This document shows, piece after piece, positions 3,694 to 42,124 of a stretch of 64,000 nt of DNA. The DNA lies in NCBI RefSeq assembly GCF_056746865.1, contig NZ_CM163382.1; one strand, given 5' to 3'. Below the pieces are notes generated by a model. That model searched no databases, was not told where the DNA came from, and saw nothing but the letters and a program-made list of their open reading frames with translations. The position numbers and the translations under genes were made by a program. The stretch's first letter is position 1. Every line of letters starts with the position of its first letter.

Positions 3694-3705
3694 TCGTTTT
3701 TTCTT

Positions 3706-3736
3706 CGGCACCTTCTTCGGGAGGTGCCGTCTGGTT
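3706..3736 (+). terminator. Hairpin downstream of opgD (cggcacct / aggtgccg stem), weak T tail
   Basis: 8-bp inverted repeat read directly in sequence, followed by tctggtt. Confidence 0.35.
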
Positions 3737-3832
3737 AAACACGATCCCGCTCGCATTTTTCCCTAAGTTAAATGAGTAATCTGATAGTGTGTATTTCAGA
3801 TACACCTTGTCAGCCACTAACAGGGAGTGCGT

Positions 3833-4057
3833 ATGTTTCCAGAATACCGAGATTTAATATCCCGTCTGAAAAACGAAAATCCTCGCTTTATGTCCTTGTT
3901 CGATAAACACAATAAACTTGATCATGAAATTGCCAGAAAGGAAGGTTCCGACGGTCGAGGGTACAATGCGGAAGTGGTCCGCATGAAAAAACAAAAGTTA
4001 CAGTTAAAAGATGAGATGCTCAAAATCCTGCAGCAGGAGAGCGTCAAAGAGGTGTAA
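3833..4057 (+). CDS. ydcH: DUF465 small protein YdcH
   Basis: Track ORF starts at GTG 3827; ATG at 3833 gives MFPEYRDLISRLKNENPRF..., 74 aa. Confidence 0.8.
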   Translation: MFPEYRDLISRLKNENPRFMSLFDKHNKLDHEIARKEGSDGRGYNAEVVRMKKQKLQLKDEMLKILQQESVKEV

Positions 4058-4065
4058 ACTTTCCT

Positions 4066-4090
4066 AAGCCGCCAGCCAGGCGGCTTTTTT
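4066..4090 (+). terminator. Rho-independent terminator after ydcH
   Basis: aagccgcc-agcca-ggcggctt stem-loop followed by a T run. Confidence 0.65.
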
Positions 4091-4119
4091 AACAACTGCA
4101 TGGATTGACTGGAGATAAG

Positions 4120-4659
4120 ATGACTGAAACGATAAAAGTAAGCGAATCACTTGAATTACATGCTGTTGCAGAAAATCACGTCACTCCTCTTTATCAGTTA
4201 ATCTGTAAAAATAAAACCTGGTTACAGCAGTCGCTAAACTGGCCGCAGTTTGTTCAAAGTGAAGAGGACACGCGAAAAACGGTGCAGGGCAATGTAATGT
4301 TGCATCAACGCGGATATGCCAAAATGTTCATGATTTTCAAAGAAGATGAACTTATCGGCGTTATCTCGTTTAATCGTATTGAACCACTGAATAAAACCGC
4401 TGAAATCGGCTACTGGCTGGACGAATCTCATCAGGGGCAGGGGATCATTTCTCAGGCGCTGCAGGCATTGATTCATCATTACGCCCAGTCTGGTGAACTT
4501 AGACGCTTCGTGATCAAATGTCGGGTGGACAATGCGCAAAGCAACCAGGTCGCTTTGCGTAATGGTTTTATCCTTGAAGGTTGCCTGAAACAGGCTGAGT
4601 TCCTGAATGATGCCTATGATGATGTGAACTTATACGCGCTTATTATCGATTCACAATAA
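4120..4659 (+). CDS. rimL: Ribosomal-protein-serine N-acetyltransferase (GNAT)
   Basis: Track ORF begins at TTG 4105; ATG at 4120 preceded by a ggag SD gives [28 protein letters not shown]..., 179 aa. Confidence 0.85.
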
Positions 4660-5631
4660 CCCTGCCAGTGGCGTTCGAGTAATGCGTTCCTCGCCGTTAA
4701 TGACTTTTGGACCACGGACATGAACCGTGTCGCCATCAAAGGCTTCAACGACGGCGTGGTCGGTTAACTCCACATGGTTTTCAATTATCACCGCACCTGT
4801 AATACGGCTCTCACCTTGTATGACAACGTGCTCGTCGAGCAGAATCGGTCCGCCACATACCACGGCATTTCCGCCAATCAAGACATGATGTTTTAACACA
4901 CAATTACCTTCCACAATGGCATATTCCGCCACCTGCGAACTGTAATGAATCGTCGGAATGGCATCTTCTTCTATGCCAGCTTTCACCTGCGCGTGACCGT
5001 AGACTTTAGCGCAATCGCATAGCCAGACGTTGTTCTCTTCATTACCTTCAACGCTGGCAAAATCAAAAACTTCGGCGCGATGTTCAATAAAAGCATACCG
5101 GACGACGGCATCGCCATAAATTTGTGCCTGGTGGACAATACGCGAGGCGCTAACCCTTGCGCGATCATAAATTTGGAGCAGGAGTTGATGGTCGGGCGTT
5201 AAGCCTTGTGCGGCGACGATCATAGAATGTTGATCAATTAAGGCGTGACCAAATATTCTACATTGCCCGTAAACTAATGAGTCATGAATGGTGACACTGT
5301 CACTTATATATGCACCCTGGCTGATTTCACTATTATCGATCCAGACGTTATCCGTTGCGTAAACCTCTCCCCACAGCACGCTGGTGCCGGTGATACGCGT
5401 ATTACCGGAAATCACCGTTCCGCCGAACGCAATAGCATTCTGGTCGTAAATCCAGCAATTTCCTTCCTGTGCTAACACCGTTTCGCGATCGATCCAGCCG
5501 CCAGCGGTTCCTGCTATCACATCGTTAAAATCGCTAATGGCGATAATCTGCCGTAATAACACATTTTTTTTAGTGCCATCTTCCTGATAACTAAAGGCTC
5601 GCTGTTCTTCACTTAGACGATATTTGCGCAT
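4651..5631 (-). CDS. ydcK: Hexapeptide-repeat (left-handed beta-helix) protein YdcK
   Basis: 326-aa ORF, ATG start, repeated G-x-A/V-x-I patterns; convergent with rimL. Confidence 0.85.
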
Positions 5632-5754
5632 AGCGTTTTCCCACAGGTGACTTACTATAACCGTAGCAAATTCTGCGGCTCTGGCTATGCTCGAGAAAAT
5701 TCCATAAAATGCATTTCAAATATACTTTATAAATTAAACAAAATGAGTAAGAAG

Positions 5755-6747
5755 ATGCAGAGCGATAAAGTGCTCAATTTGCCGGCAGGCTACTTTGGTA
5801 TTGTGTTGGGGACGATAGGGATGGGATTTGCCTGGCGCTATGCCAGCCAGGTTTGGCAGGTCAGCCACTGGTTAGGGGATGGGCTAGTGATTCTGGCGAT
5901 GATCATCTGGGGATTATTGACTAGCGCATTTATTACCCGACTCATACGCTTTCCGCATAGCGTGCTGGCGGAAGTTCGCCATCCAGTGATGAGCAGTTTT
6001 GTGAGTTTGTTTCCGGCAACGACGATGCTGGTGGCGATTGGTTTTGTTCCGTGGTTTCGCCCACTGGCGGTGTGCCTGTTCAGTTTTGGTGTCGTGGTTC
6101 AGTTGGCTTATGCCGCCTGGCAAACTGCGGGATTATGGCGCGGATCTCATCCTGAAGAAGCTACCACGCCTGGACTGTATCTGCCGACAGTTGCCAACAA
6201 CTTTATCAGCGCAATGGCCTGTGGTGCATTGGGCTACACCGACGCCGGTCTGGTGTTTTTAGGCGCAGGCGTTTTCTCATGGTTAAGCCTGGAACCGGTG
6301 ATCTTGCAGCGACTGCGCAGTTCGGGAGAATTACCCACGGCGCTGCGGACATCACTCGGCATTCAGCTCGCTCCTGCGCTGGTGGCCTGTAGTGCCTGGC
6401 TGAGCGTCAACGGCGGCGAGGGTGACACGCTGGCGAAAATGCTTTTCGGTTATGGGCTGCTGCAACTGCTGTTTATGCTACGTCTGATGCCATGGTATCT
6501 CTCCCAGCCATTTAATGCTTCATTCTGGAGTTTCTCGTTCGGCGTATCTGCACTGGCAACCACCGGTTTGCATCTGGGGAGTGGCAGCGATAATGGATTT
6601 TTCCATACGCTGGCGGTGCCGCTGTTTATCTTTACCAATTTTATAATTGCAATACTGCTCATCCGTACTTTCGCGCTTCTGATGCAGGGGAAATTGTTAA
6701 TCAGAACCGAGCGCGCCGTTTTAATGAAAGCTGAGGACAAAGAATGA
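5755..6747 (+). CDS. tehA: Tellurite resistance protein TehA (TDT-family membrane transporter)
   Basis: Internal ATG at 5755 gives [31 protein letters not shown]..., 330 aa; the track ORF (5647) is a 5' over-extension. Confidence 0.9.
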
Positions 6748-7337
6748 TCATTCGTGACGAAAACTATTTTACTGATAAGTATGAATTAACCCGCACACAC
6801 TCTGAAGTACTGGAAGCGGTGAAAGTGGTTAAACCCGGTAAAACGCTGGATCTGGGCTGTGGCAATGGTCGTAACAGTCTTTACCTGGCAGCCAATGGTT
6901 ATGAAGTTGACGCATGGGATAAAAATGCCATGAGTATCGCCAACGTCGAGCGCATTAAATCCATTGAAAATCTGGATAATTTACACACTCGGGTCGTTGA
7001 TCTGAATAACCTTACGTTTGATGGGCAATACGATTTTATTCTTTCGACTGTGGTGCTGATGTTCCTTGAGGCTAAAACCATCCCAGGGCTGATTGCCAAT
7101 ATGCAACGTTGCACTAAACCTGGCGGTTACAACCTGATTGTGGCGGCGATGGATACCGCTGATTATCCATGTACCGTCGGCTTCCCGTTTGCCTTCAAAG
7201 AGGGAGAATTACGTCGATATTACGAAGGCTGGGAGATGGTGAAATACAATGAAGACGTCGGCGAGCTGCACCGCACCGACGCCAACGGTAATCGTATTAA
7301 ACTGCGTTTCGCCACGATGCTGGCACGTAAAAAATGA
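6744..7337 (+). CDS. tehB: Tellurite methyltransferase TehB (SAM-dependent)
   Basis: 197-aa ORF overlapping the tehA stop by 4 nt; [18 protein letters not shown]-binding motif. Confidence 0.9.
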
Positions 7338-7638
7338 CCCGCTAAGAACAAGGCGCGTGATAATTCCCCCGCTGAGATGGTTTACTGTTCTTCTTTTCGG
7401 TAAGCATAATTTTTATCGAATGGATGTGAAATTAATCACAGTAGTCGAAGTTTTTTAGCAGCTTAACTTACTGAAATTTAACTACTGATGATTGACTTAG
7501 CCCCTTTTTCGGCATTGACTATGTCGTCTGAAAAGGGGCTGAAAAATTTATTTTCACCAACACTTTTTTTGCCACAACACGAAGCGGCGCTTTTTGCTAT
7601 AACTTAGAAAGTAATATAATCATCTCAGGAAACTATTC

Positions 7639-8307
7639 ATGCGTACCACATCAATTGCGAAAGTTGCAGCTTTATGCGGCTTGTTGGCTCTGTCTGGTTG
7701 TGCCTCTAAAATCACCCAGCCAGATAAATATTCTGGTTTTTTAAACAATTACTCTGATTTAAAAGAAACAACCTCAGCAACAGGTAAACCTGTTTTACGT
7801 TGGGTAGACCCGAGTTTTGATCAAAGCAAATATGACAGCATCGTCTGGAACCCAGTCACTTATTATCCGGTACCGAAACCATCTACCCAGGTAGGGCAGA
7901 AAGTTCTGGATAAAATTTTGAGTTATACCAACACCGAAATGAAAGAAGCGATTGCGCAGCGTAAACCACTGGTTACCACCGCTGGGCCGCGTAGTCTGAT
8001 TTTCCGTGGGGCCATTACCGGTGTTGATACCAGCAAAGAAGGGCTGCAATTCTATGAAGTGGTTCCTGTCGCATTAGTGGTCGCGGGGACGCAAATGGCG
8101 ACGGGCCACCGTACCATGGATACTCGCCTCTATTTTGAAGGTGAGCTGATTGATGCAGCTACTAATAAACCGGTTATCAAAGTCGTTCGTCAGGGCGAAG
8201 GTAAAGACCTGAATAACGAAAGTACGCCAATGGCTTTCGAAAATATTAAACAAGTTATTGATGACATGGCGACCGATGCCACTATGTTTGACGTTAACAA
8301 AAAGTAA
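7639..8307 (+). CDS. ydcL: Putative lipoprotein YdcL
   Basis: 222-aa ORF; signal peptide with lipobox (LALSGC). Confidence 0.85.
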   Translation: MRTTSIAKVAALCGLLALSGCASKITQPDKYSGFLNNYSDLKETTSATGKPVLRWVDPSFDQSKYDSIVWNPVTYYPVPKPSTQVGQKVLDKILSYTNTEMKEAIAQRKPLVTTAGPRSLIFRGAITGVDTSKEGLQFYEVVPVALVVAGTQMATGHRTMDTRLYFEGELIDAATNKPVIKVVRQGEGKDLNNESTPMAFENIKQVIDDMATDATMFDVNKK

Positions 8308-12719: not shown

Positions 12720-12896
12720 GTGAAACAAAGCGAGTTCAGACGTTGGCTCGAATCTCAGGGCGTCGATGTGGCGAATGGCAGCAACCATTTGAAACTCAGG
12801 TTTCAAGGGCGACGCAGTGTCATGCCGCGTCACCCCAGTGATGAGATAAAAGAACCATTGCGTAAAGCAATCCTGAAGCAACTCGGTTTGAGTTAA
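12720..12896 (+). CDS. hicA: HicA toxin (mRNA interferase), GTG start
   Basis: Not in the ORF track (58 aa); GTG at 12720 gives VKQSEFRRWLESQGVDVANGSNHLKLRFQGRRSVMPRHPSDEIKEPLRKAILKQLGLS, immediately upstream of hicB. Confidence 0.8.
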   Translation: MKQSEFRRWLESQGVDVANGSNHLKLRFQGRRSVMPRHPSDEIKEPLRKAILKQLGLS

Positions 12897-12920
12897 TCGC
12901 CAATTAAAAAGGTTAATGAC

Positions 12921-13358
<438 letters not shown>

Positions 13359-20658: not shown

Positions 20659-21468
20659 ATGAAAGTTCAATTGTATAAATTCACGGAAGATAAAAATAAA
20701 ACCCTTACCTTCAGGTGGACGAAAAAACACTTTGAGTTTTGTATGGATAATAAAATCTTTTTAAATCATAAGGGGAAGAAGTCGTATAAAGAAAGAAATT
20801 TATTTCTTTTCTCAAAAGGTGACAAGATAACAATTGAAGATAATGTTATTGCTGAAGAATATTCAACAATGCCTGTAAAAAATTTCTCCAGTGTCGGCGC
20901 TTTTTCATTCCCGACCTGTCATTTTACAGGGAATATACATATAGGTCGATTTTGTAGTATTGCATCAAATGTAAAAATAATGGGAGGAAATCATCCTTTG
21001 AATCGTTTTACTACTCACATGATGACTTATAACGGTGAATTTGATAAGTTTGCTAAGAGTGAGTTTGAACGTAGCTGGACATTGAAACCATTCATTACCA
21101 AACCTGAAAATCCGATTATAGGAAATGATGTCTGGATAGGAAATGATGTTGTACTGAAAGGTGGCATCGCAATAGGTGATGGTGCTGTTATTGCTGCCAA
21201 TTCCGTTGTTACCAAAGATGTGCCCCCATATGCCATAGTTGCAGGAGTTCCTGCAAAAATAATCAGATTTAGATTTGATTCAAATGTTATTGATGAATTG
21301 TTGAGAATAAAGTGGTGGAATTATAATTACTCAGATCTTCCGGATAATAACAAATGTGATGATATAAATTATTTTGTTGAAGAGATGAATCGATTGATAT
21401 CAAATGGAAATATTCAAGAGATGGACTATAAAAAATTCAATCTTTCTGAGATATTTAGAGACCTATAA
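20659..21468 (+). CDS. Hexapeptide-repeat acetyltransferase, XAT/Vat (streptogramin A / xenobiotic acetyltransferase)-like
   Basis: 269-aa ORF in a low-GC islet; IGRFCSIASNVKIMGGNHPLNRFTTH and IGNDVWIGNDVVLKGGIAIGDGAVIAANSVV resemble XAT-family motifs. Confidence 0.65.
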   Translation: MKVQLYKFTEDKNKTLTFRWTKKHFEFCMDNKIFLNHKGKKSYKERNLFLFSKGDKITIEDNVIAEEYSTMPVKNFSSVGAFSFPTCHFTGNIHIGRFCSIASNVKIMGGNHPLNRFTTHMMTYNGEFDKFAKSEFERSWTLKPFITKPENPIIGNDVWIGNDVVLKGGIAIGDGAVIAANSVVTKDVPPYAIVAGVPAKIIRFRFDSNVIDELLRIKWWNYNYSDLPDNNKCDDINYFVEEMNRLISNGNIQEMDYKKFNLSEIFRDL

Positions 21469-29251: not shown

Positions 29252-30751
29252 TTAACTCGCCGTTTCAGGCTTAAACACAATTTCCTGTTGTTCTTCATCT
29301 TCCTCGACGACTGGCGCAGTGCTGTGAATTTCAGCAACGCGTTTGCGCACACCAAACCAGCCTATAACCAGCAGAATACCGATAATCGGCAGCGCCGCGA
29401 TGGTATAAGTCCCGTTCGGGTAATCGAACGCCATCAGCACCAGGACGCTCAGCAAAAACAGTAATGTCAGCCAGGAAGTGAAGGGCGCGCCAGGCAGTTT
29501 AAAACTCACATCCGCGGCTTTGCCTTCTTTAATCGCTTTACGCAGGCGCATCTGGCACACGATGATAAACGCCCATGAGGCGATGATTCCCAGCGACGCG
29601 AAGTTCAACACAATCTCAAATACGCGCGACGGCACCAGATAGTTGAGGAATACGCCGACGACATACACAACCAGTGTCGCCAGAATCCCGGCATACGGCA
29701 CATGCTGACGACTCATTTTCGCCATAAAACTCGGTGCGGAACCGCCCATCGCCATTGAGCGCAGAATACGTCCGGTGCAGTACAGACCTGAGTTCAGGCT
29801 GGAGAGGGCAGCGGTCAGCACCACAATGTTCATAATGCTGCCGATATATGGCACACCCAGTTTAGAGAAAAACGTCACGAACGGACTTTGCCCCGCCTGA
29901 TATGCGCTCCACGGCAATAACATAACCAGCAACACCACGGAGCCGACGTAAAACAGGCCAATACGCCAAATCACACTGTTAATCGCTTTAGGCACCATGG
30001 TCTGCGGATCTTTACATTCTCCGGCAGCTGTACCCACCATTTCAATGGAGGCAAAAGCAAACACTACGCCCTGAATCAACACCAGCGCAGGCAGCAAACC
30101 GTGGGGGAAGAAGCCGCCATTATCGGTAATTAAATGAAAACCAGTGGTGTTGCCATCCAGCGGCTGACCACTACCGAGGAACACTGTACCCACGACCAAA
30201 AAGGTCACAATGGCGAGCACTTTAATAAGCGCAAACCAGAACTCCATCTCGGCAAACCATTTCACACCGATCATATTCATGGTGCCAACGATGGTCAGCG
30301 CAGCGAGCGCAAAGACCCACTGCGGCACGCCGCCAAACGCACCCCAGTAATGCATATACAGAGCGACGGCGGTAATATCGACAATCCCCGTCATCGCCCA
30401 GTTGATGAAGTACATCCAGCCTGCAACGTAAGCGGCTTTCTCTCCTAAAAACTCACGGGCATAAGAGACAAAACTGCCACTGGAAGGGCGGTGTAGCACC
30501 AGCTCACCCAATGCACGCAGAATAAAAAATGAAAACAGGCCGCAGATTAAATAGACCAGTGCCAGTGCTGGCCCCGCCATTTGCAGTCGGGCTCCCGCGC
30601 CTAAAAACAAACCCGTACCAATCGCGCCGCCAATGGCGATCATCTGTACCTGGCGATTGCCCATCGCTTTGTGATACCCCTCTTCGTGGGCATTAAGCCA
30701 GCGGCGTTTCGCGGCGTGCTGATCTGAAGTGTCGGTGTCGTGTTTACTCAT
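29252..30751 (-). CDS. ansP: L-asparagine permease (APC family)
   Basis: ATG at 30751 gives MSKHDTDTSDQHAAKRRWLNAHEEGYHKAM..., 499 aa, polytopic. Confidence 0.9.
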   Translation of the reverse strand: MSKHDTDTSDQHAAKRRWLNAHEEGYHKAMGNRQVQMIAIGGAIGTGLFLGAGARLQMAGPALALVYLICGLFSFFILRALGELVLHRPSSGSFVSYAREFLGEKAAYVAGWMYFINWAMTGIVDITAVALYMHYWGAFGGVPQWVFALAALTIVGTMNMIGVKWFAEMEFWFALIKVLAIVTFLVVGTVFLGSGQPLDGNTTGFHLITDNGGFFPHGLLPALVLIQGVVFAFASIEMVGTAAGECKDPQTMVPKAINSVIWRIGLFYVGSVVLLVMLLPWSAYQAGQSPFVTFFSKLGVPYIGSIMNIVVLTAALSSLNSGLYCTGRILRSMAMGGSAPSFMAKMSRQHVPYAGILATLVVYVVGVFLNYLVPSRVFEIVLNFASLGIIASWAFIIVCQMRLRKAIKEGKAADVSFKLPGAPFTSWLTLLFLLSVLVLMAFDYPNGTYTIAALPIIGILLVIGWFGVRKRVAEIHSTAPVVEEDEEQQEIVFKPETAS

Positions 30752-31017
30752 TGCTCTCCCTGATTGCTTTAATGAAAAAGTCATATAAGTTGCCATGAAC
30801 AATGTTTATTCATCCTGGCGATGATAGTTATCACCATTATTCTTTATGGGTATAAAACTATCGGCGCAGCATCCTACCCGTTATCGATAAACGATGCAAA
30901 ACATCCCCTTACAATCCTGAAGGGGAATAATACAACTGACGAAAAAATGACAAATCCTTTTGCTGGTTAACCTGTGTACTGTCCTACACTTAATCTTTAA
31001 AAGATTGTGAGGGGCAT

Positions 31018-31635
31018 ATGATTAAGGTGTATGGCGTACCCGGATGGGGCTCTACAATCAGTGAGCTGATGCTAACACTGGCTGATATTCCTTATCAGTT
31101 CGTTGATGTCAGTGGTTTTGACCACGAGGGAACCTCACGCGAGTTATTGAAAACCCTGAACCCGTTGTGTCAGATTCCGACACTGGCGCTGGAAAATGAC
31201 GAGATTATGACGGAGACAGCGGCGATTGCATTGATGGTTCTCGATCGTCGCCCGGACCTTGCGCCACCGGTTGGGCGCGCCGAACGTCAGCAGTTTCAAC
31301 GGCTATTGGTCTGGCTGGTTGCTAATGTCTATCCAACATTCACTTTCGCCGATTACCCTGAGCGTTGGGCTCCTGACGCACCCGAACAGTTAAAGAATAA
31401 TGTTATTGAATATCGTAAATCGCTTTATATCTGGCTGAATTCACAATTGACCGCTGAACCTTATGCCTTTGGCGAGCAACTAACGCTGGTGGACTGTTAT
31501 CTCTGCACCATGCGCACATGGGGGCCGGGGCATGAATGGTTTCACGATAATGCGCAGAATATCAGCGCGATCGCTGAAGCTGTATGTCAGTTACCGAAAT
31601 TACAAGAAGTATTAAAAAGGAATGTCATTATTTAA
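31018..31635 (+). CDS. yncG: Glutathione S-transferase homolog
   Basis: 205-aa ORF with GST-like fold signature. Confidence 0.85.
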   Translation: MIKVYGVPGWGSTISELMLTLADIPYQFVDVSGFDHEGTSRELLKTLNPLCQIPTLALENDEIMTETAAIALMVLDRRPDLAPPVGRAERQQFQRLLVWLVANVYPTFTFADYPERWAPDAPEQLKNNVIEYRKSLYIWLNSQLTAEPYAFGEQLTLVDCYLCTMRTWGPGHEWFHDNAQNISAIAEAVCQLPKLQEVLKRNVII

Positions 31636-32174
31636 CAATAATGCCGGAGGTTAATGTTAATGAATCACTGGCGTAATTAACTGGATATCCATTTGTTTGC
31701 TATGAATAGTAATTAAAGTTGGTACAACTATTTATATGATTGATGTAATTTCGTTTTTTATATGAAATATCAATTTAATATAATCCGAAAATAAAACATC
31801 TTTTCGCATGTAGAGAAACATGTCGATATGATAGTGCAGTGCAGATCATGTCATCAGGGTAGGGCGGTAGCGTATTTAATCAGGGAAAGATTACGCAACG
31901 CTGCTTTTTTGTATTGAACGATTCGCATTTTATGTTTAAAAATTGCGATATTCCTTATTTCCTGAAGCTGTTTTTATTGCTTATACATGATCAAATACTC
32001 CTTACATAATTAAGGAGAACAAAATGGAACTTAATACACGCCAACAATTTGTATTACTTAAATAGACCAGTGAAGGTACGCATCAGAACATCCGGTGAAG
32101 TGATTAATATTTCGTTGAATATTTCTCCCGATTTTTGAAACCTGCTGCTGTAGAAATTCTGAACAGGAGGAATT

Positions 32175-32459
32175 ATGCCTTTAGCAGCCAAACTCACCGA
32201 CAAAGGCACCCAGCACGACGGTTATTACGAGACCGTCATCACCGCCGGGTCATCCACCGTCTTTATCGATGGTCTTCCCGCAGCCCGTCAGGGAGATCCG
32301 CTGACGCCGCATGCTAAACCGAAGCATCCCCCTCATCCCCGTAAAATCGCCAGAGGTTCTTCAACCGTCTTTATTGACGGCCTGCCCGCCGCCAGAAGCG
32401 GTGATGCTGTTGACTGCGGCGGCGTGGTTATTGGTGGCGGTACGGTAAATATAGGCTGA
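32175..32459 (+). CDS. PAAR-repeat protein (T6SS spike tip)
   Basis: 94-aa ORF with aggagg SD; duplicated GSSTVFIDGLPAAR(Q/S)GD motif. Confidence 0.75.
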   Translation: MPLAAKLTDKGTQHDGYYETVITAGSSTVFIDGLPAARQGDPLTPHAKPKHPPHPRKIARGSSTVFIDGLPAARSGDAVDCGGVVIGGGTVNIG

Positions 32460-32477
32460 TATGTCTGAGAGGTATTT

Positions 32478-34883
32478 ATGTCCTTAAAAGGTCTTCGCTT
32501 TACGCTGGAGGTTGACGGCCAGGAGCCGGACACCTTTGCAGTGGTGAATTTCAGGTTAATCCAGAACCAGTCATATCCGTTTGTGATGAGTGTGGATGTT
32601 GCCAGCGACTCTTTTATGCAGACGGCGGAGATGCTGCTGGAGAAGAAGGCGACACTGACCATCTGGCAGGGCGCAGTGGCGCAGCGTTATGTCACCGGCG
32701 TGGTGGCGGGTTTTGGCATGCAGGAGAATAACGGCTGGCAGATGCGTTATCACCTGCGTATTGAGCCGCCGTTATGGCGGTGCGGGCTGCGGCAGAACTT
32801 TCGTATCTTCCAGCAGCAGGATATCCGGACGATATCGGCCACGTTACTGAACGAGAACGGCGTCACGGAGTGGACGCCGCTGTTTTATGAGGACCATCCG
32901 GCGCGGGAGTTCTGTGTCCAGTACGGGGAGTCGGACCTGGCGTTTCTGTCCCGGCTATGGGCGGAGGAGGGTCTTTTCTTCTTTGAGCGGTTTGCGGCGG
33001 ACAGTCCGGAGCAGAAGCTGACGCTGTGCGACGATGTGGCGGGGCTGTCACAGGCGGGGGAGTTTCCGTTTAACCCGGACACATCGGCAGGAGCGGAGAC
33101 GGAGTGTGTCAGTATGTTCCGTTATGAGGCGCATGTCCGCCCGTCATCGGTGCAGAGCCAGGATTACACCTTTAAGGTGCCGGACTGGCCGGGGATGTAT
33201 GAGCAGCAGGGTGAGAACCTGAACGGACAGCTGGAGCAGTATGAGATATTTGATTATCCGGGAAGGTACAAGGATGAACAGCACGGCAAGGATTTCACGC
33301 TGTACCAGATGGAGAGCCTGCGCAGTGATGCGGAAAAGGCCACAGGGCAGAGTAATTCGCCGAAGCTGTGGCCGGGAACGCGGTTTATGCTGACGGGGCA
33401 TCCGCAGAAGATGCTGAACCGTGAATGGCAGGTGGTACAGAGCATACTGTCAGGAAACCAGCCGCAGGCGCTGCACGGCAGCCAGGGAAAGGGAACCACG
33501 CTGGGCAATCAGTTAGAGGTGATACCGGCGGACCGGACGTGGCGTCCACGGCTGCAAAACAAACCGAAGGTGGACGGGCCACAGAGCGCCATTGTCACCG
33601 GTCCTGCGGGAGAGGAAATCTTCTGCGACGAACACGGACGTGTGCGAGTGCAGTTTCACTGGGACAGGTATAACCCGGCAACGGAGGCGAGTTCATGCTG
33701 GGTGAGGGTGTCGCAGGCGTGGGCGGGGCCGGGGTTCGGTAACCTGGCGATACCACGGGTGGGTCAGGAGGTGATAGTGGACTTCCTGAACGGCGACCCG
33801 GACCAGCCGATAATCATGGGGCGGACGTACCATGAGGACAACCGTTCGCCGGGCGACCTGCCGGGAACGAAGACGCAGATGACCATCCGGTCAAAAACCT
33901 ATAAAGGAAGCGGATTTAACGAGCTGCGGTTTGAAGACGCCACCAGTAATGAGCAGGTGTATATCCATGCCCAGAAGAACATGGATACGGAGGTGCTCAA
34001 CGACCGGACAACGGATGTGAAACATGACCATACGGAAACCATCGGGAACGACCAGAAGATAACGGTGGTGAAGGGGCAGACGGTTCAGGTCGGGACCAGA
34101 AAAGAAGGGGGCCACGACCAGAGTATCACGGTGGCGAACGACCGGTGCATCACGGTACGTAATGACCAGACGCTGCAGGTGACGAATGACCGGACGGTGA
34201 GCGTGAGTAATGATGACGGCCTGTACGTCAGAAATGACCGTAAAGTGACGGTGGAAGGGAAGCAGGAGCATAAGACGACGGGGAACCATATCAGTCTGGT
34301 GGAGGGAAAGCACAGCCTGGTGGTGAAGGGGGACCTGGCGAGGAAGGTGAGTGGCGCGCTGGGGATAAAGGTGGACGGGGATATCGTGCTGGAGAGCAGC
34401 AGCCGGATAAGCCTGAAGGTGAGTGGCTCGTTTGTGGTCATCCATTCAGGGGGCGTGGACATCGTCGGGCCGAAAATCAATCTCAATAGCGGCGGTAGTC
34501 CGGGGACGCCGGTGCCGGCGCTGCAACCGGCGGTGCTGAAGACACTGGGGGATGAGAAGAGTGGTGATGGCAGTGATTCCGGAGAAGAAAATGAAGACTC
34601 TGGAGGGAACTGCGTGACCGGAAGTGGTGGTGATGATCGAGGTGACGATGAGGATGAACCTGAAAAATATACTCTCCAGTTCCATTTTACAGACGATGAC
34701 GGGATACCGTATTCAGAAACCCGCTACATTGCCTTCTTTGAGGATGGCACGCAGACCCGCGGAGAAACGGATGAAGAGGGGTATACAGAGCGTTTTTTTG
34801 TATCTAGCAAACATGAAATTAAAGTGAAGTTGTTATTTGCGAATGATGATTTTCTCTCAATGGAAGGACACTATGGACGATAA
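32478..34883 (+). CDS. vgrG: VgrG (type VI secretion spike protein) with C-terminal extension
   Basis: 801-aa ORF: gp27/gp5-like N-terminal part, beta-helix repeats (ITVANDRCITVRNDQTLQVTNDRTVSVSNDDGLYVRNDRKVTV), acidic Gly/Asp/Glu linker, then a ~70-aa C-terminal domain. Confidence 0.9.
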   Translation: MSLKGLRFTLEVDGQEPDTFAVVNFRLIQNQSYPFVMSVDVASDSFMQTAEMLLEKKATLTIWQGAVAQRYVTGVVAGFGMQENNGWQMRYHLRIEPPLWRCGLRQNFRIFQQQDIRTISATLLNENGVTEWTPLFYEDHPAREFCVQYGESDLAFLSRLWAEEGLFFFERFAADSPEQKLTLCDDVAGLSQAGEFPFNPDTSAGAETECVSMFRYEAHVRPSSVQSQDYTFKVPDWPGMYEQQGENLNGQLEQYEIFDYPGRYKDEQHGKDFTLYQMESLRSDAEKATGQSNSPKLWPGTRFMLTGHPQKMLNREWQVVQSILSGNQPQALHGSQGKGTTLGNQLEVIPADRTWRPRLQNKPKVDGPQSAIVTGPAGEEIFCDEHGRVRVQFHWDRYNPATEASSCWVRVSQAWAGPGFGNLAIPRVGQEVIVDFLNGDPDQPIIMGRTYHEDNRSPGDLPGTKTQMTIRSKTYKGSGFNELRFEDATSNEQVYIHAQKNMDTEVLNDRTTDVKHDHTETIGNDQKITVVKGQTVQVGTRKEGGHDQSITVANDRCITVRNDQTLQVTNDRTVSVSNDDGLYVRNDRKVTVEGKQEHKTTGNHISLVEGKHSLVVKGDLARKVSGALGIKVDGDIVLESSSRISLKVSGSFVVIHSGGVDIVGPKINLNSGGSPGTPVPALQPAVLKTLGDEKSGDGSDSGEENEDSGGNCVTGSGGDDRGDDEDEPEKYTLQFHFTDDDGIPYSETRYIAFFEDGTQTRGETDEEGYTERFFVSSKHEIKVKLLFANDDFLSMEGHYGR

Positions 34884-35664
34884 TAATCAAACTTCTGGAC
34901 AACCAAAGCCAGAGCCAGAAGAATGTGTGAAAGAGCAAAAAATAACTGATCATTTTAAAATAATGATTGATAAGGCTCGTAAGGCACAAAAGTTGGTTTT
35001 GATAAAAAGAGCAGATGATCTTTTGAGATGGGGAGCACAGGAGGAATATGATTTCAGTAAGATCTTTGGTGTTAAAGGAAATAAGGAGGTTAATATAAGA
35101 AAATATGGACATAATACAGGTAGGCGCATGAATGCTAGATTTCTTATGATGGATGGTGTGAGAAGATTAATGATTATAGCTAATGATTTAACAATGAGCA
35201 GTTTTATAAATTATACAGGTTGTAATGAATTTGCAGCATTCGTCAGCCCAAGTAAGGATATGCCCTATATAATTAACATAGGCGCAAAATTTGAGTATAG
35301 AGATGGCAAAAAAAATCCAGTAACGGGAAAGGATTCTCATGTTGCTACTTTATGTCATGAAATGTCTCATATTCAGTGGTATTATGGGGATAATAAAAAA
35401 GGTGGTATGTGGTCACAGGATTATACAACTACTGATAAATATTCAACGTGCAAAGAGGATGAAGTTTCATATGACGAACATATCCGTATTGCAACTAAAC
35501 TGATCTCTAAACAAAAAGATCAAATATTCGAGAATGCATATAACATAGAAAGATATTTTGAAATAAGATTAATTGAAAGTGAGATAGACTCGATTAATGA
35601 TGAAATATTAAGCAATTCAGTTAAGAAAAAAATAGCGGAATTAGAAAAAGCACTTCTCCATTAA
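34873..35664 (+). CDS. Candidate VgrG cargo effector with HExxH (zincin-like) motif
   Basis: ATG overlaps the vgrG stop (ATGGACGATAA); 263 aa; HEMSH at nt 35356-35370; GC content drops sharply at the vgrG stop. Confidence 0.55.
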   Translation: MDDNNQTSGQPKPEPEECVKEQKITDHFKIMIDKARKAQKLVLIKRADDLLRWGAQEEYDFSKIFGVKGNKEVNIRKYGHNTGRRMNARFLMMDGVRRLMIIANDLTMSSFINYTGCNEFAAFVSPSKDMPYIINIGAKFEYRDGKKNPVTGKDSHVATLCHEMSHIQWYYGDNKKGGMWSQDYTTTDKYSTCKEDEVSYDEHIRIATKLISKQKDQIFENAYNIERYFEIRLIESEIDSINDEILSNSVKKKIAELEKALLH

Positions 35665-35716
35665 CTAATAAGTCGAGAAATATATTAATGCTGCAAGCTA
35701 TAAAAAAATCATAATA

Positions 35717-36346
35717 ATGACAATCGTAAATATTATATTTTTCTATTCCTTTCAATCGACTGCGGATGAAATGGTTTTAATAAAAAAATACGGGTTTGGG
35801 CTTGAGAGAGATATCAAAGGAAGGCCATTAATTTATCCTATCGAAAATTATGATGAGTGTAAGAAAAAATGCAATCATATGAATTATATAGCGGATGTCA
35901 ATGCTCAATTAGCTATGAGTAAAAAAAACAACAGGATTTTTGCTAACATAACCTTTACTAACAATAGCTCTACCACGTATTTTTTTTCTAAATATTACCT
36001 ACCTATGAAAGTAAAAGATGGAAAAGGAGATGAATATGATGCGATATGCAAAAAACCATTCAGAATCAACTCTGGGAATATCACGTTGGACTACTTAGGT
36101 GGTTCATGTCCTTTTGAAATTAATACGAATCCTGAACGGTGGAATACTATTAAACCAGGTCGTAGTTTTTTGTTGAGTATAACCTTAAATGATATGTATG
36201 CCTTTATACCAGGAGATAATTATTATTTTATAAAATCATCTGGCTATAAATTTGTTAATGACAAGTGGTTTACACTCAAATCAATCAATAATATTTTTCT
36301 TTATTTTTTAAATTTAAAAATTAATTGTGCTGATGATTTTTTTTGA
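35717..36346 (+). CDS. Hypothetical protein, candidate immunity partner (ends at a T8 tract)
   Basis: 209-aa AT-rich ORF directly downstream of the effector candidate; stop lies in a T8 homopolymer; downstream ORF 36327-36509 is in the +1 frame. Confidence 0.4.
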   Translation: MTIVNIIFFYSFQSTADEMVLIKKYGFGLERDIKGRPLIYPIENYDECKKKCNHMNYIADVNAQLAMSKKNNRIFANITFTNNSSTTYFFSKYYLPMKVKDGKGDEYDAICKKPFRINSGNITLDYLGGSCPFEINTNPERWNTIKPGRSFLLSITLNDMYAFIPGDNYYFIKSSGYKFVNDKWFTLKSINNIFLYFLNLKINCADDFF

Positions 36347-36528
36347 TATTAATAATTTTACTACATGTGATAATTTGTTATTAGATGAAAAAAAATACTT
36401 TTTTATTAATCAGTTATGGGCAATTGAGGATGAAAAAAATTCTATTTACGTCACCCCTGATGAAATTTCTATAAGTATAGACGGCGATAACTTAAAGTTG
36501 CCATATTAGGAATCTGTGAAAGAACAAG

Positions 36529-37017
36529 GTGCGCCGCTTTTTTGTACTAAATAATTCGCATTTTAGTCACGGCAGAGAAGAAATCCATCTTCATATTGTT
36601 TGCGATGTCCCTGATGAACTTATTGATTTCACGTTTGAATGGAAAGGTCAGAAGAAATTATGCGTGGCAGTCTCCTTTTGGTCAATAATAGCAGAACAAA
36701 AGAAAGAGCCAGAAATGACGGTCAGATATTATATCAGTTCTGCTGATTTAACCGCAAAAAAGTTCGCCACAGCGATACGAAATCACTGGCACGTGGAGAA
36801 TAAGCTGCACTGGCGTCTGGACGTGGTAATGAACGAAGACGACTGCAAAATAAGAAGAGGAAACGCCGCAGAATTATTTTCAGGGATACGGCACATCGCT
36901 ATTAATATTTTAACGAATGATAAGGTATTCAAGGCAGGGTTAAGACGCAAGATGCGAAAAGCAGCTATGGACAGAGACTACCTCGCGTCAGTCCTTGCGG
37001 GGAGCGGGCTTTCGTAA
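36529..37017 (+). pseudogene. H-repeat-associated (ISAs1-family transposase) 3' remnant
   Basis: Translation ...[44 protein letters not shown]...[22 protein letters not shown] resembles the C-terminus of H-rpt proteins; no N-terminal half present. Confidence 0.7.
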
Positions 37018-37125
37018 TCTTGCCCTGGCGATCGAATAGCGCAGATGACGGTGCTCTAAATTTGAATCTAATAAGCCGGTGTTATTTTTCATCCACTATT
37101 AAAATCTTGACACAACGAGGCAACA

Positions 37126-37686
37126 ATGAAAAAAAGCAAAAAAATTAAAACAATGAACCATCAAAATAATAGCGGGATACAAAATCAACCAGACTATCAC
37201 ATCGAAATAGAAAGAAAAAATATGGTAAGATTGCTTGATGAACGTATTGATAAAGTTTACGGTTCATTGCTAGGACCAATGAAAAAGAAAAATATAGATA
37301 AAATACGTCATTTTACACTTGATGTAATGGTGTTTATTCTTGACACGAACCCTCGTGTTTGTAATAAATTATCCAGGGAAATAATATCTTTAGCGCAAAA
37401 TACCTTCATTGAAAAAAACGTTAATTTTTCAACTTTTAATAATGAACAGCATAGAATAAGGGAGTATATGAATGAAGGTGGTGGAATACGATGGTTTACA
37501 TGGGATAACCCCGAGATATCTTTTGTTCGTGCATCTTTTGGCCTTTTTGTCAAAATGGAAACAAAAGGTGATCATGAACATACACTAAGTGACACATTTC
37601 TTCAGATTGTTGAGTGTGTTAATTTAAATATAGGACTTATTGCAAAAGATGAACTGGTAAAAATCATCAATAAACACTTTATGTAA
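37126..37686 (+). CDS. Hypothetical protein (AT-rich orphan ORF)
   Basis: 186-aa ORF, ATG with acgagg SD, low GC; no motif recognised. Confidence 0.45.
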   Translation: MKKSKKIKTMNHQNNSGIQNQPDYHIEIERKNMVRLLDERIDKVYGSLLGPMKKKNIDKIRHFTLDVMVFILDTNPRVCNKLSREIISLAQNTFIEKNVNFSTFNNEQHRIREYMNEGGGIRWFTWDNPEISFVRASFGLFVKMETKGDHEHTLSDTFLQIVECVNLNIGLIAKDELVKIINKHFM

Positions 37687-38045
37687 AAATATACTTCTGT
37701 ATGAAGTTATAATAATACAGTGAAAATCATCAAATTATTAATTAATGATGCTCTTTGTTATTATTTACTTTTTACAATTGAATCAGGGGTTTTATTTTCT
37801 GTAGTAAAGTTGTATTTTTGCTAAAGGTGATAAAGTACAGGTGTTTATATTAAATTAGAACTCCCCTTAATTATCATAAATACAAAGAGGTGAAAACATG
37901 CGGGGGTGTTTTCGTTAAATAATACCATGGTGAATTAATAACATGCTATCAGTGATATACATATTTTCTCTAACAAAGTTTTAGTAAAATTACGCGTAGT
38001 AAGAAGATTCCGCCAAAGATTCCATATAATAATATTAAGGTTGTT

Positions 38046-38681
38046 ATGAATAAAGGTAATAGATTACAACAGTTAGAAGATGCGTGTCGTGATATTATTA
38101 AAATTAACATGTGGTATGAACTCCCCGATTATGTATTTTTTTCAATATCTGACACCATCGATGGGACGAGTGATGAATTCGCAATAAATGTGTATAAAAA
38201 TATCGATAAAAGTCTTCTTGAAATATTATTGCATCCATCTGTTTTACTGTCAGTTGTTGAGTCCTTACAAAGTAATACTATAGCTGAGTATATCGTGAAA
38301 TTGTCTGAAATAGAGATGAATTATGACGACTTGCTAATATCGGATGTTAAATCATGTCTTTTTATCAACTATGGATTCAATAACAGTGAATCGGTTGCGC
38401 TATTTAATAAGATTTACCGCGAATTAAAAGATATTGTAAAATCATCAAGAGTACATATAGATCATGAGAAAGATATTTTTGATGGCCTTAATCAAATCTT
38501 GGCTTTTTCCGATAATAATAAACATGAGTATTTTTTATATATAAAGGCATATTGGCTCAGTTTATACTTTTGTGAAATTTCACAGAACGTGAGAGAAAGA
38601 GATAAGTTGTCATTTTATTATAATGAATTTTCTGTCCGATTTCCTAATGTTGTCCTATATCCGTCATGCTACAAATTGTAA
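38046..38681 (+). CDS. Hypothetical protein (AT-rich orphan ORF)
   Basis: 211-aa ORF, ATG start, low GC; no motif recognised. Confidence 0.45.
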   Translation: MNKGNRLQQLEDACRDIIKINMWYELPDYVFFSISDTIDGTSDEFAINVYKNIDKSLLEILLHPSVLLSVVESLQSNTIAEYIVKLSEIEMNYDDLLISDVKSCLFINYGFNNSESVALFNKIYRELKDIVKSSRVHIDHEKDIFDGLNQILAFSDNNKHEYFLYIKAYWLSLYFCEISQNVRERDKLSFYYNEFSVRFPNVVLYPSCYKL

Positions 38682-38806: not shown

Positions 38807-39007
38807 AATAAAAAACTGCAAAACTGCTTTTTCTTGACCTGTCCCAATCACGCAAGACTACTTTTAGTAGAGACCTCCAGCTATGTCGATTTTAGTGCCG
38901 CCCGCGCATTTTATACAAAACAGGGCTTTATTAATGAAGCTATAATACGCAATTACTATGATGTTGGTGAGGATAAATTAATCTTCACTAAAAATATGCA
39001 ATCGTGA
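38807..39007 (+). pseudogene. 3' remnant of a GNAT acetyltransferase gene
   Basis: Open frame without start encodes ...YVDFSAARAFYTKQGFINEAIIRNYYDVGEDKLIFTKNMQS; A-x-x-FY-x-K-x-GF is the classic GNAT C-terminal motif. Confidence 0.4.
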
Positions 39008-40743: not shown

Positions 40744-41265
40744 ATGAAACATTCATTTGAAGTAAAACTTGCCGCTGTAAATCATTACCTGGCTGGTCAT
40801 GCAGGCATCATTTCTACGGTAAAACTCTTTCAACTTTCTCACACCAGCCTCTCACACTGGATTAATCTTTTTCTTCTTCACGGTCCTCGGGCACTGGATT
40901 GCAGACACAAGCGTAGCTATTCTCCTGAAGATAAACTTTGCGTGGTTCTTTATGCTCTCGGGCATTCTGAGTCTCTACCCCGGGTAGCTGCCCGGTTTAA
41001 CATTCCCAGCCACAACACGGTTAAAAACTGGATAAAAGGCTACCGCAAATCTGGTAATGAGGCCTTTATCAGGCGCAGGAAGGAGAAAAGCATGACCCGT
41101 TCTGATGATACCCATGAAAACGAGGCAAACATGACGCCGGAAGAGATGAAGAATGAGCTGCGTTATCTTCGCGCAGAAAATGCATATCTGAAAGCCATGC
41201 AGGAGCATCTCCTGGAAAAAAAGCGCCAGGAGCTGGAGAAAAAACGAAAGTCATCCGGAGCCTGA
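40744..41265 (+). CDS. IS3-family transposase OrfA (HTH)
   Basis: ATG at 40744 with gaaggtg SD; ends shortly after the slippery heptamer A_AAA_AAG at 41217-41223. Confidence 0.8.
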   Translation: MKHSFEVKLAAVNHYLAGHAGIISTVKLFQLSHTSLSHWINLFLLHGPRALDCRHKRSYSPEDKLCVVLYALGHSESLPRVAARFNIPSHNTVKNWIKGYRKSGNEAFIRRRKEKSMTRSDDTHENEANMTPEEMKNELRYLRAENAYLKAMQEHLLEKKRQELEKKRKSSGA

Positions 41266-41369
41266 GGTGCGGACACTGCCAGTCTGACCTGTTAAAGGCT
41301 GCAGGGCTGGCCAGAAGCACGCTGTACTACCAGCTGTCACTGCAGAAGGCTAAGGACAAGTATGCTGAT

Positions 41370-42124
<755 letters not shown>

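Follow-up and report, generated by a model that had tools for sequence, protein, structure and literature searches.

Described systems and the yncG-yddH locus

Among the closest described counterparts of the locus reported here is the "T6SS effector locus1" of E. coli BCE049, in which module 5 consists of a PAAR protein, VgrG-O2 and an M35 peptidase (PMC7904677). In the published phylogeny VgrG-O2 groups with the T6SS2 VgrG, toxicity of the M35 peptidase to E. coli required that it be directed to the periplasm, and deletion of effector locus1 produced no virulence phenotype in mice (PMC7904677). A related peptidase, M35^PAR, kills E. coli, is neutralised by the downstream gene and binds a VgrG fragment designated "DUF2345^PAR", and the recruitment of the effector was credited to DUF2345 (PMC10673891). 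[quoted passage not shown] The spike VgrG2b of P. aeruginosa brings a zinc metallopeptidase into the prey periplasm (PMC6899460).

The window analysed here, by which we mean the whole 64,000-nucleotide stretch of contig NZ_CM163382.1 (GCF_056746865.1), carries an auxiliary spike locus between yncG and yddH. The equivalent K-12 site has the gene order yncG-yncH-rhsE'-ydcD-yncI'-ydcC-pptA-yddH, and this order bears out the preliminary description, which had placed a PAAR-VgrG spike at the position of the K-12 rhsE remnant. That description called the module an orphan spike; the spike does have a cargo, as effector and immunity genes follow vgrG directly and are translationally coupled to it. Our analysis established the identities of the genes and the folds of their domains, as well as the presence of a T6SS-2 core in the genome, and we consider it very probable that the locus is an auxiliary T6SS vgrG island that supplies a complete load of spike plus toxin to a T6SS encoded elsewhere. 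The features of the island are as follows:

32175-36509, + strand: auxiliary spike locus in the yncG-yddH interval (PAAR, vgrG, M35 peptidase, immunity gene)
31878-32034, + strand: left-end remnant of an ISAs1/H-repeat element in the AT-rich yncG-PAAR spacer (alignment to K-12 ydcC, repeat D1)
32175-32459, + strand: T6SS PAAR tip protein, 94 aa (NF033420, PF05488, RefSeq WP_001127492.1)
32478-34532, + strand: VgrG/TssI spike core of T6SS-2 type, residues 1-685 (TIGR03361, Pfam, PDB relatives)
34533-34670, + strand: flexible acidic linker rich in Gly, Asp, Glu and Ser, residues ~686-731 (composition)
34671-34883, + strand: VgrG C-terminal TTR-like beta-sandwich, ~70 aa, putative dock for the M35 effector
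34873-35664, + strand: M35/aspzincin-like zinc metallopeptidase, predicted cargo effector, 263 aa (RefSeq, motif, AF2/Foldseek, profile)
35688-36509, + strand: predicted cognate immunity gene, predicted periplasmic product, frameshifted twice (homology to genes downstream of M35)
36511-37028, + strand: remnant of an ISAs1 (H-repeat) transposase with an internal deletion, at the border of the cassette (NF033564, K-12 ydcC)
37126-38681, + strand: two low-GC hypothetical ORFs (186 and 211 aa) that occupy the remainder of the island

The interval flagged in the preliminary description ended at 34883, and the effector (34873-35664) and immunity gene (35688-36509) sit just beyond it.

Genome context was provided by EF5-18-41, which matches window positions 1-49675 (49.7 kb) at 99.992% identity. 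The EF5-18-41 equivalent of the window has no annotated Rhs core, YD-repeat ORF or T6SS structural gene, with the last ~14 kb covered by annotation only; the earlier statements that the window lacks both agree with this annotation, and by the absence of a YD-repeat core ORF the locus is not an Rhs element. The only K-12 segments that align inside the island are short non-coding stretches and ISAs1-related sequence.

A complete T6SS core is present elsewhere in EF5-18-41. Its aspV cluster contains tssA, B, C, E, F, G, H, J, K, L and M along with hcp and vgrG, so that by gene content all 13 core genes (tssA-M) are represented, and it also has tagH, vasI and VasL, with TssL annotated as icmH/DotU. 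The only one of these core genes flagged as a pseudogene is vgrG, which RefSeq marks as "incomplete"/partial. The cluster was assigned to the T6SS-2 class by comparison with both BCE049 clusters. The earlier view of an auxiliary spike island separate from its T6SS core thus held, and judging from gene content and relatedness T6SS-2 is the machine that would fire this spike.

Integrity and distribution of the island

The PAAR ORF matches NF033420 over positions 1-94 of 94 at 156.5 bits (cutoff 124) and PF05488 at E=7e-21, contains two GSSTVFIDGLPAAR motifs, and corresponds to WP_001127492.1, which RefSeq names "type VI secretion system PAAR protein". Its stop codon is separated from the vgrG start by 18 nt (32460-32477), the spacing reported originally. 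The internal duplication described earlier in this ORF is real as a repeat, its two copies being identical at 16 of 17 residues; the DNA of the copies is just 75% identical across 48 nt, and they represent the normal repeated motifs that define the family and not a recent duplication. The position of the PAAR gene upstream of vgrG, which had been remarked on, is standard for this type of island, and Salmonella as well as 651 E. coli genomes share it.

Of 5,426 complete E. coli genomes, 174 carry the exact 9 kb arrangement, and the cassette of VgrG tail, M35 peptidase and immunity gene was found in 508, including LF82, 536 and PAR. The PAAR, VgrG and M35 proteins are full-length and essentially invariant in the 174 genomes, and the cassette is at least 99% identical in 593 records. 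With RefSeq annotation and one published instance in addition to the 174 genomes, the arrangement singled out in the preliminary description is therefore common and already annotated: it is an ordinary vgrG island of E. coli, known from annotation and in part from the literature.

Both sides of the cassette carry remains of ISAs1 elements. On the left, positions 31906-32034 are 93.8% identical to the region just upstream of, and including, the first codons of K-12 ydcC, and a 55-nt direct repeat (D1, 31878-31932) recurs on the right at 36511-36565; the yncH gene of K-12 is missing from the locus. The right-hand remnant, a pseudogene according to RefSeq, matches only the C-terminal third of the ISAs1 transposase model NF033564, and its positions 36565-37028 align with the 3' portion of K-12 ydcC at 95% identity. 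The 186-aa and 211-aa ORFs beyond it had no match in NCBIfam, PADLOC, PHROGs or Pfam and are present in 186 genomes of essentially one lineage. A promoter and terminator scan gave no excess over shuffled expectation.

The immunity gene is expected to be cognate to the M35 effector based on its homology to the genes that follow M35 at three further loci; it had no match in NCBIfam, PADLOC, PHROGs or Pfam. Intact homologs have 273 aa in LF82 and 276 aa in Salmonella, the latter being 41% identical and having a clear Sec signal peptide. In the window the gene reads as a 209-aa ORF (35717-36346) and a 60-aa tail ORF (36327-36509) owing to two homopolymer indels, A7 versus A8 at 35695-35701 and T8 versus T7 at 36331-36338. 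The truncated protein lacks the last ~54 residues and, in the window, also the charged start of the signal peptide. Adjacency, homology and signal peptides together indicate the pairing of a signal-less effector with a co-varying, exported, predicted immunity protein. In strain H22 effector and immunity gene have been swapped jointly and an orphan immunity gene has been retained, and such orphan copies are kept in about 145 genomes.

The frameshifts imply that the toxin-immunity pair may be impaired, or the system silent, and they are one reason to consider whether the island is a decaying relic, i.e., a non-functional polymorphic-toxin remnant that hitch-hikes in the genome and is out of use in competition. 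Of the five genomes whose immunity gene we read only LF82 has an intact copy, and the flanking ISAs1 fragments, the presence of only a pseudogene at yncG-yddH in K-12 and the BCE049 deletion that had no phenotype in mice (PMC7904677) could be taken in the same sense. We nevertheless find decay unlikely, based on the fact that the PAAR, VgrG and M35 genes are uninterrupted and near-invariant across many genomes, that an active toxin beside a dead immunity gene would be selected against, that the 209/219-aa truncated immunity protein keeps the entire region that is homologous among family members, and that a complete T6SS-2 core is present.

The VgrG tail and the M35 effector

The vgrG ORF (32478-34883) is intact and uninterrupted and encodes 801 aa. 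The protein scores 602 bits against positions 1-513 of TIGR03361, and its Pfam domains Phage_GPD (gp27-like), Phage_base_V (OB) and Gp5_trimer_C (gp5 C-terminal) place the gp27-like hub, OB fold and gp5-like needle of a VgrG/TssI protein in one ORF. The closest PDB relatives of the core are VgrG1-type spikes (E~1e-88), and residues 1-500 are 88-100% identical, per 50-residue block, to the VgrG of the EF5-18-41 aspV cluster.

Beyond the needle, much as the preliminary description had recorded, are an acidic linker (D9 E7 G10 S5 in 46 residues) and a tail of ~70 aa; the GC content begins to drop at the linker. The comparison of this tail with TTR-like and DUF2345 domains that had been proposed gave a divided result: homology to TTR-like domains was found, and DUF2345 (PF10106) had no match after the gp5 needle in Pfam even at E<=10. 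A profile of the tail matched residues 777-830 of EAEC VgrG1, its Tle1-binding TTR-like domain, at E=5e-4 and the TTR region of VgrG2b (6h56) weakly (E=0.46).

Close relatives of the tail precede an M35 homolog in every locus inspected, namely an E. coli T6SS-2 main cluster, core and orphan loci of Salmonella, an E. coli T6SS-1 cluster and strain H22. Tail and effector co-vary, as in H22 the last ~50 VgrG residues change jointly with the M35 allele. We considered whether the tail defines an M35-specific adaptor family and rejected this at the family level; the distant tail-bearing VgrGs P0050, P0077, P0116 and P0136 are followed by genes that have neither HExxH nor a match to the M35 profile, one of which encodes Ntox44. 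Pairing with M35 is limited to the close tail subfamily, and since distant tails precede unrelated genes the domain is probably a generic dock, its specificity for M35 being a presumption drawn from that subfamily.

Physical binding of the effector by the TTR-like tail is accordingly a prediction from homology and co-variation, and a different role for the tail, structural or target-binding, with the effector loaded through the PAAR protein or the VgrG needle, deserves mention. A Foldseek search of the tail against the PDB returned nothing significant (best E=0.15), the same fold is widespread in adhesins and macroglobulins, and recruitment has been credited to DUF2345 (PMC10673891), a domain that the window VgrG does not have. 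Such a role appears very unlikely to us, given that the tail is homologous to a domain experimentally defined as binding Tle1, that a close variant of it on a 27%-identical VgrG scaffold also adjoins an M35 homolog, that tail and effector were swapped together in H22, and that the "DUF2345^PAR" fragment to which M35^PAR binds contains a homolog of this very tail.

The effector gene overlaps the vgrG stop by 11 nt, has the ribosome-binding site GGAAGG, and encodes WP_000342577.1, annotated by RefSeq as "peptidase M35". It has the HExxH motif (HEMSH, residues 162-166), and H162, E163, H166 and D183 are invariant in 20 homologs; around D183, the candidate third zinc ligand, only the (S/T)xD of GTxDxxYG is kept, and in the shortest family members the downstream Asp lies 9 residues past the second His, as in GfMEP. 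The best PDB matches of the AF2 model (pLDDT 87.8) by Foldseek were GfMEP (1ge6; E=1.2e-4, TMt 0.74), AsaP1 (2x3a) and deuterolysin (1eb6), and the family profile matched AsaP1 at E=2e-6 and GfMEP at E=1e-3, so that both fold and profile similarity identify an M35-like peptidase. As a single sequence the effector matched Pfam PF14521 (M35) at E=0.005 only and matched no PDB sequence by phmmer. No signal peptide was found on it. A relationship to the peptidase domain of VgrG2b (6h56) was also considered and discarded, as neither the M35 profile nor Foldseek produced a match, and the two catalytic domains may therefore differ in family. The effector is expected to find its substrate in the periplasm; AsaP1 and GfMEP typically show peptidyl-Lys specificity, which for this effector would be a guess.

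The peptidase might instead be a eukaryote-directed virulence effector. Its closest solved profile relative, AsaP1 from the fish pathogen Aeromonas salmonicida, is an extracellular protease with toxic activity, M35 proteases have been linked to pathogenicity (PMC5874247), and ExPEC, APEC and AIEC strains such as LF82, 536, PMV-1 and APEC O2:K1 often carry the cassette. We regard this reading as highly improbable, as the adjoining signal-peptide immunity gene co-varies with the effector, orphan immunity copies are maintained, the near-identical BCE049 protein shows toxicity in the periplasm of E. coli, and deletion of the BCE049 locus left infection of mice unattenuated (PMC7904677).

Proposed mode of action and comparison with known systems

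In the auxiliary-island reading that we prefer, the PAAR protein would cap the VgrG trimer, and the VgrG core, being of the aspV-linked T6SS-2 type, should be able to seat on the baseplate and Hcp tube of that machine. The flexible acidic linker would hold the TTR-like beta-sandwich, on which the translationally coupled product of the next gene, the signal-less 263-aa metallopeptidase, would dock. Sheath contraction would fire the loaded spike into a Gram-negative neighbor, where the peptidase would act in the periplasm, and the downstream Sec-exported protein, whose immunity function is predicted from its homology and position, would shield sister cells. The low-GC tail, effector and immunity gene would constitute an exchangeable cassette, joined by recombination to a vgrG core that is conserved.

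More tentatively, the core of the TTR tail (FHFTDDDGIPYSETRYIAFFEDG..GETD..GYTE) may serve as a recombination anchor like the core-tip junction of Rhs and CdiA proteins, a proposal that we regard as possible rather than probable. According to it, everything beyond the anchor would be one exchanged low-GC cassette that moves between loci, the tail and not DUF2345 would recognise M35, displaced immunity genes would persist downstream, and homopolymer runs would switch the frame of the AT-rich immunity gene between lineages. If so, the exchanged unit would be the last ~30-50 VgrG residues together with the M35 allele and the immunity gene, and spikes of the T6SS-1 and T6SS-2 types, as well as E. 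coli and Salmonella, would share in its exchange.

These points leave current T6SS models unchanged. What had plausibly been read from unannotated sequence as an "orphan spike" turned out to be a routine annotated vgrG island with its toxin one gene further on; the M35 toxin family appears to ride both T6SS-1 and T6SS-2 spikes via a common TTR-like tail, and the yncG-yddH (rhsE) site appears to be a hot spot for the mutual replacement of M35 toxin/immunity cassettes. The cassette swapping and the immunity frameshifts are modestly new details only, the frequency of the latter being a small added point for T6SS biology.

The effector has the fold of the M35/aspzincin peptidases GfMEP (1GE6), AsaP1 (2X3A) and deuterolysin (1EB6), and its active site aligns with their "TGxDSxxxTLxHExSH" block, with an Asp downstream that is invariant in the effector family; however, it is only ~17% identical to them and has extra N-terminal helices and a C-terminal helix, with neither a secretion signal nor a propeptide. 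VgrG2b similarly has a TTR-like module just before its peptidase and an immunity protein with a signal peptide (PMC6899460), although its peptidase is fused to VgrG whereas that of the window is a separate cargo. Like EAEC VgrG1-Tle1, the window has the effector gene directly downstream of vgrG. VgrG1, however, is a T6SS-1-type protein whose core is distant from that of the window VgrG (E=2.6e-26); the window VgrG has an acidic linker in place of the DUF2345 extension of VgrG1 and is paired with a peptidase rather than a phospholipase.

M35^PAR (P0023) is 30% identical to the window effector, with HExxH, Asp and NAYNIERYFE conserved, and the tail of its VgrG is 54% identical. Its locus lies within a T6SS-1 (Sci-1-like) core cluster, however, and the VgrG there, whose core is 27% identical to that of the window, carries DUF2345 and in PAR is divided between two genes. 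PAR also has the window cassette at yncG-yddH, and the published study used the T6SS-1 locus: its primers point to the locus whose product starts MSNDRGSS, so the window cassette was rejected as the one characterised (PMC10673891). The 43-nt overlap primer of that paper had no match in E. coli genomes, which we attribute to its being an engineered junction.

The displacement of Rhs C-termini, as at K-12 rhsE, shares with the window the chromosomal site, the association with H-repeat/ISAs1 elements, the combination of a conserved delivery gene with a low-GC variable tip and immunity gene, and the retention of old immunity genes downstream. In contrast to Rhs, the window has no YD-repeat shell, the toxin that varies is a protein of its own, and the boundary falls within the VgrG TTR domain or beyond it, whereas in Rhs it lies at a core motif.

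BCE049 differs from the window in having a second module (PAAR-VgrG-DUF2169-PAAR-like) in tandem upstream, in lacking the two extra low-GC ORFs, and in the homopolymer runs at which the immunity gene is disrupted. The two loci have in common the yncG-yddH site, the gene order and the ISAs1 remnants; their VgrGs are identical at 771 of 801 residues and their M35 peptidases at 262 of 263, and it is for this nearly identical peptidase that others have shown toxicity specific to the periplasm.

The PAAR-VgrG spike and its adjoining M35 effector

The ORF map agreed exactly with the preliminary description in the coordinates of the PAAR and vgrG genes and in the 18 nt gap between them, and the positions of an acidic linker and a ~70-aa tail at the end of the VgrG were also borne out.

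Features of the locus (window coordinates)
32175-32459: PAAR ORF, 94 aa; full-length, above-cutoff match to the curated NCBI T6SS PAAR model; also matches Pfam PAAR_motif
32478-34883: VgrG ORF, 801 aa; TssI/VgrG match, 602 bits
34873-35664: effector ORF, 263 aa; HEMSH motif; RefSeq name "peptidase M35"
35688-36509: putative immunity gene, low-GC, downstream of the effector; intact homologues have a Sec signal peptide
37126-37686: low-GC (~30%) ORF, 186 aa
38046-38681: low-GC (~30%) ORF, 211 aa

The VgrG has gp27-like, OB and gp5 needle domains, and a domain search of its 801 residues found no DUF2345. What had been taken for an internal duplication in the PAAR protein is the normal repeated motif of that family: the two stretches are identical at 16 of 17 residues, but their DNA is only 75% identical over 48 nt.

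The account of the locus as a spike module was correct but incomplete because it stopped short of the effector, whose ORF begins where that account ended. The effector start overlaps the vgrG stop codon end by 11 nt and has a GGAAGG ribosome-binding site upstream. Searched as a single sequence, the effector gave only a marginal match to the Pfam M35 model (E=0.005) and none among PDB sequences. Its family profile, however, matched two M35 enzymes, AsaP1 (E=2e-6) and GfMEP (E=1e-3), in an alignment spanning the "TGxDSxxxTLxHExSH" active-site block. Residues H162, E163, H166 and D183 are invariant in 20 homologues, which also have a C-terminal NAYNIERYF block in common. A confident AF2 model (pLDDT 87.8) had significant PDB matches only to GfMEP, AsaP1 and deuterolysin; the peptidase domain of Pseudomonas aeruginosa VgrG2b was found neither by the family profile nor among these structural matches.

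The VgrG tail as a putative cargo dock

The last 80 VgrG residues were modeled by AF2 as an all-beta sandwich (pLDDT 79), for which Foldseek returned no significant match. The earlier proposal that this tail is a TTR-like docking domain gained support from a profile of twelve tails, which matched residues 777-830 of VgrG1 (E=5e-4), which we take to be its TTR domain, and more weakly the TTR region of VgrG2b. In a library-wide profile search the tail domain turned up in 220 representative proteins, at or near the extreme C-terminus in most of the matches listed. Because four distant VgrGs with this domain are followed by genes other than M35, the tail family is, as judged from sequence, a putative generic cargo dock, with the M35 pairing confined to a close subfamily.

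Within that subfamily, an E. coli T6SS-2 main cluster and Salmonella core and orphan loci encode tails with ~68% identity across the final 181 residues, again upstream of M35 homologues. An 836-aa T6SS-1-type VgrG, which has a DUF2345 and a core only 27% identical to that of the window VgrG, is 54% identical to it over the last 65 residues, and its gene is followed by an M35 homologue 30% identical to the window effector. Based on published primers, this homologue is M35^PAR, the effector studied in E. coli strain PAR, for which "DUF2345^PAR" was reported to bind M35^PAR and to bridge it to VgrG^PAR (PMC10673891). Since the PAR T6SS-1 vgrG is split, judging by where the primers fall on a VgrG homologue in another genome (3498-6008 in the T6SS-1 locus records L006/L007), "DUF2345^PAR" appears to correspond to the C-terminal portion of that gene, including the TTR-like tail. 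The binding of M35^PAR credited to DUF2345 could therefore lie in the tail instead.

Genomic setting and cassette exchange

The site is that of rhsE in K-12, as previously recognized, where the gene order is yncG-yncH-rhsE'-ydcD-yncI'-ydcC-pptA-yddH. In local alignment the window and K-12 have in common here only the flanks and two ISAs1 (H-repeat) pieces. These remnants lie on either side of the PAAR-VgrG-M35-immunity genes, at 31878-32034 and 36511-37028, and a 55-nt left-end-like sequence is present at both. As ISAs1 fragments likewise separate tandem modules in strains BCE049 and LF82, this layout suggests IS-mediated or homology-mediated cassette shuffling. The 186-aa and 211-aa ORFs downstream stand where K-12 has pptA (pptA and yncH are both missing from the window), had no match in NCBIfam, Pfam, PADLOC or PHROGs, and are confined to ~186 genomes from the same lineage. 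A 57-aa ORF (38834-39007) at the right edge of the island is weakly GNAT/RimI-like (E=2.6e-4) and probably represents a gene fragment.

The GC content drops stepwise from the PAAR gene and vgrG core (58%) through the linker and tail (46%) and the peptidase (32%) to the immunity gene (28%). Between lineages the immunity gene has single-base indels in A/T homopolymer runs. In the window, A7 rather than A8 at 35695-35701 leaves the signal peptide without its charged start and T8 rather than T7 at 36331-36338 cuts off the last ~54 residues, so that the gene reads as a 209-aa ORF and a 60-aa tail ORF. Strain S1-ZIM-01-A has the second change only (T8 versus T7), PAR and BCE049 have other indels, and of five genomes read, LF82 alone had an intact 273-aa gene.

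In E. coli H22 (2521-7731 of its locus record, against window 32175-36509), the same locus has a PAAR-VgrG backbone that stays at least 86% identical to that of the window up to approximately residue 750. The last ~50 VgrG residues diverge, accompanied by a 200-aa M35 allele of 32% identity with an immunity gene of its own, and an orphan remnant of the window-type immunity gene survives downstream. By this comparison, the VgrG end, M35 variant and immunity gene appear to have replaced the window versions.

Elsewhere in the window is IS1397 (IS3 family; ~40744-42093, between nhoA and yddE), which is also in strain EF5-18-41 but not in K-12. By EF5-18-41 annotation there are also a hicAB toxin-antitoxin pair (12720-13358), further small toxin genes (ortT and a RelE/ParE-HigA pair) and a CatB-related acetyltransferase gene (near 20659-21468) unlisted in the K-12 stretch examined.

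The probable T6SS machine, prevalence and known counterparts

EF5-18-41 is 99.992% identical to the window over 49.7 kb, including the IS1397 insertion. Its core cluster at aspV is complete (tssA, B, C, E, F, G, H, J, K, L, M, hcp and vgrG), with tagH, vasI and VasL in addition and tssL annotated as icmH/DotU. Compared in 50-residue blocks, the VgrG of this cluster is 88-100% identical to the window VgrG across residues 1-500 and diverges beyond them. In the stretch 30206-35673 of the aspV locus record it is a 652-aa ORF, flagged by RefSeq as "incomplete, missing C-terminus"; downstream come a DUF4123 adaptor and hypothetical genes, and further on a group II intron and ISAs1 fragments. From comparison with both BCE049 clusters, the aspV cluster is the "T6SS2" of PMC7904677, in which "T6SS1" is the Sci-1-like cluster adjoining argA. 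The published phylogeny of VgrG-O2, the BCE049 VgrG at yncG-yddH, agrees with the T6SS2 assignment (PMC7904677).

The novelty first attached to this arrangement did not hold up: the exact 9 kb is common, occurring in 174 of 5,426 complete E. coli genomes, and is already annotated (PAAR, TssI/VgrG, peptidase M35 and hypothetical proteins). PAAR and vgrG together were found in 651 genomes, and the tail/M35/immunity cassette in 508, mostly with at least 99% identity, with LF82, UPEC 536, PMV-1, APEC O2:K1 and PAR among the carriers; it was at yncG-yddH in all six genomes inspected. Only a partial cassette was present in ~145 genomes, those sampled having mostly the immunity gene alone.

The feature is real and was correctly described, and its functional reading was largely correct, but the locus is an ordinary, annotated and partly characterized auxiliary T6SS-2 spike/effector/immunity cassette. 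The details of cassette exchange and immunity gene frameshifts are minor additions to what is known. In BCE049 the window cassette corresponds to module 5 of the published "T6SS effector locus1" (PMC7904677), whose M35 peptidase, identical to that of the window at 262 of 263 residues, inhibited E. coli only on export to the periplasm (PMC7904677).
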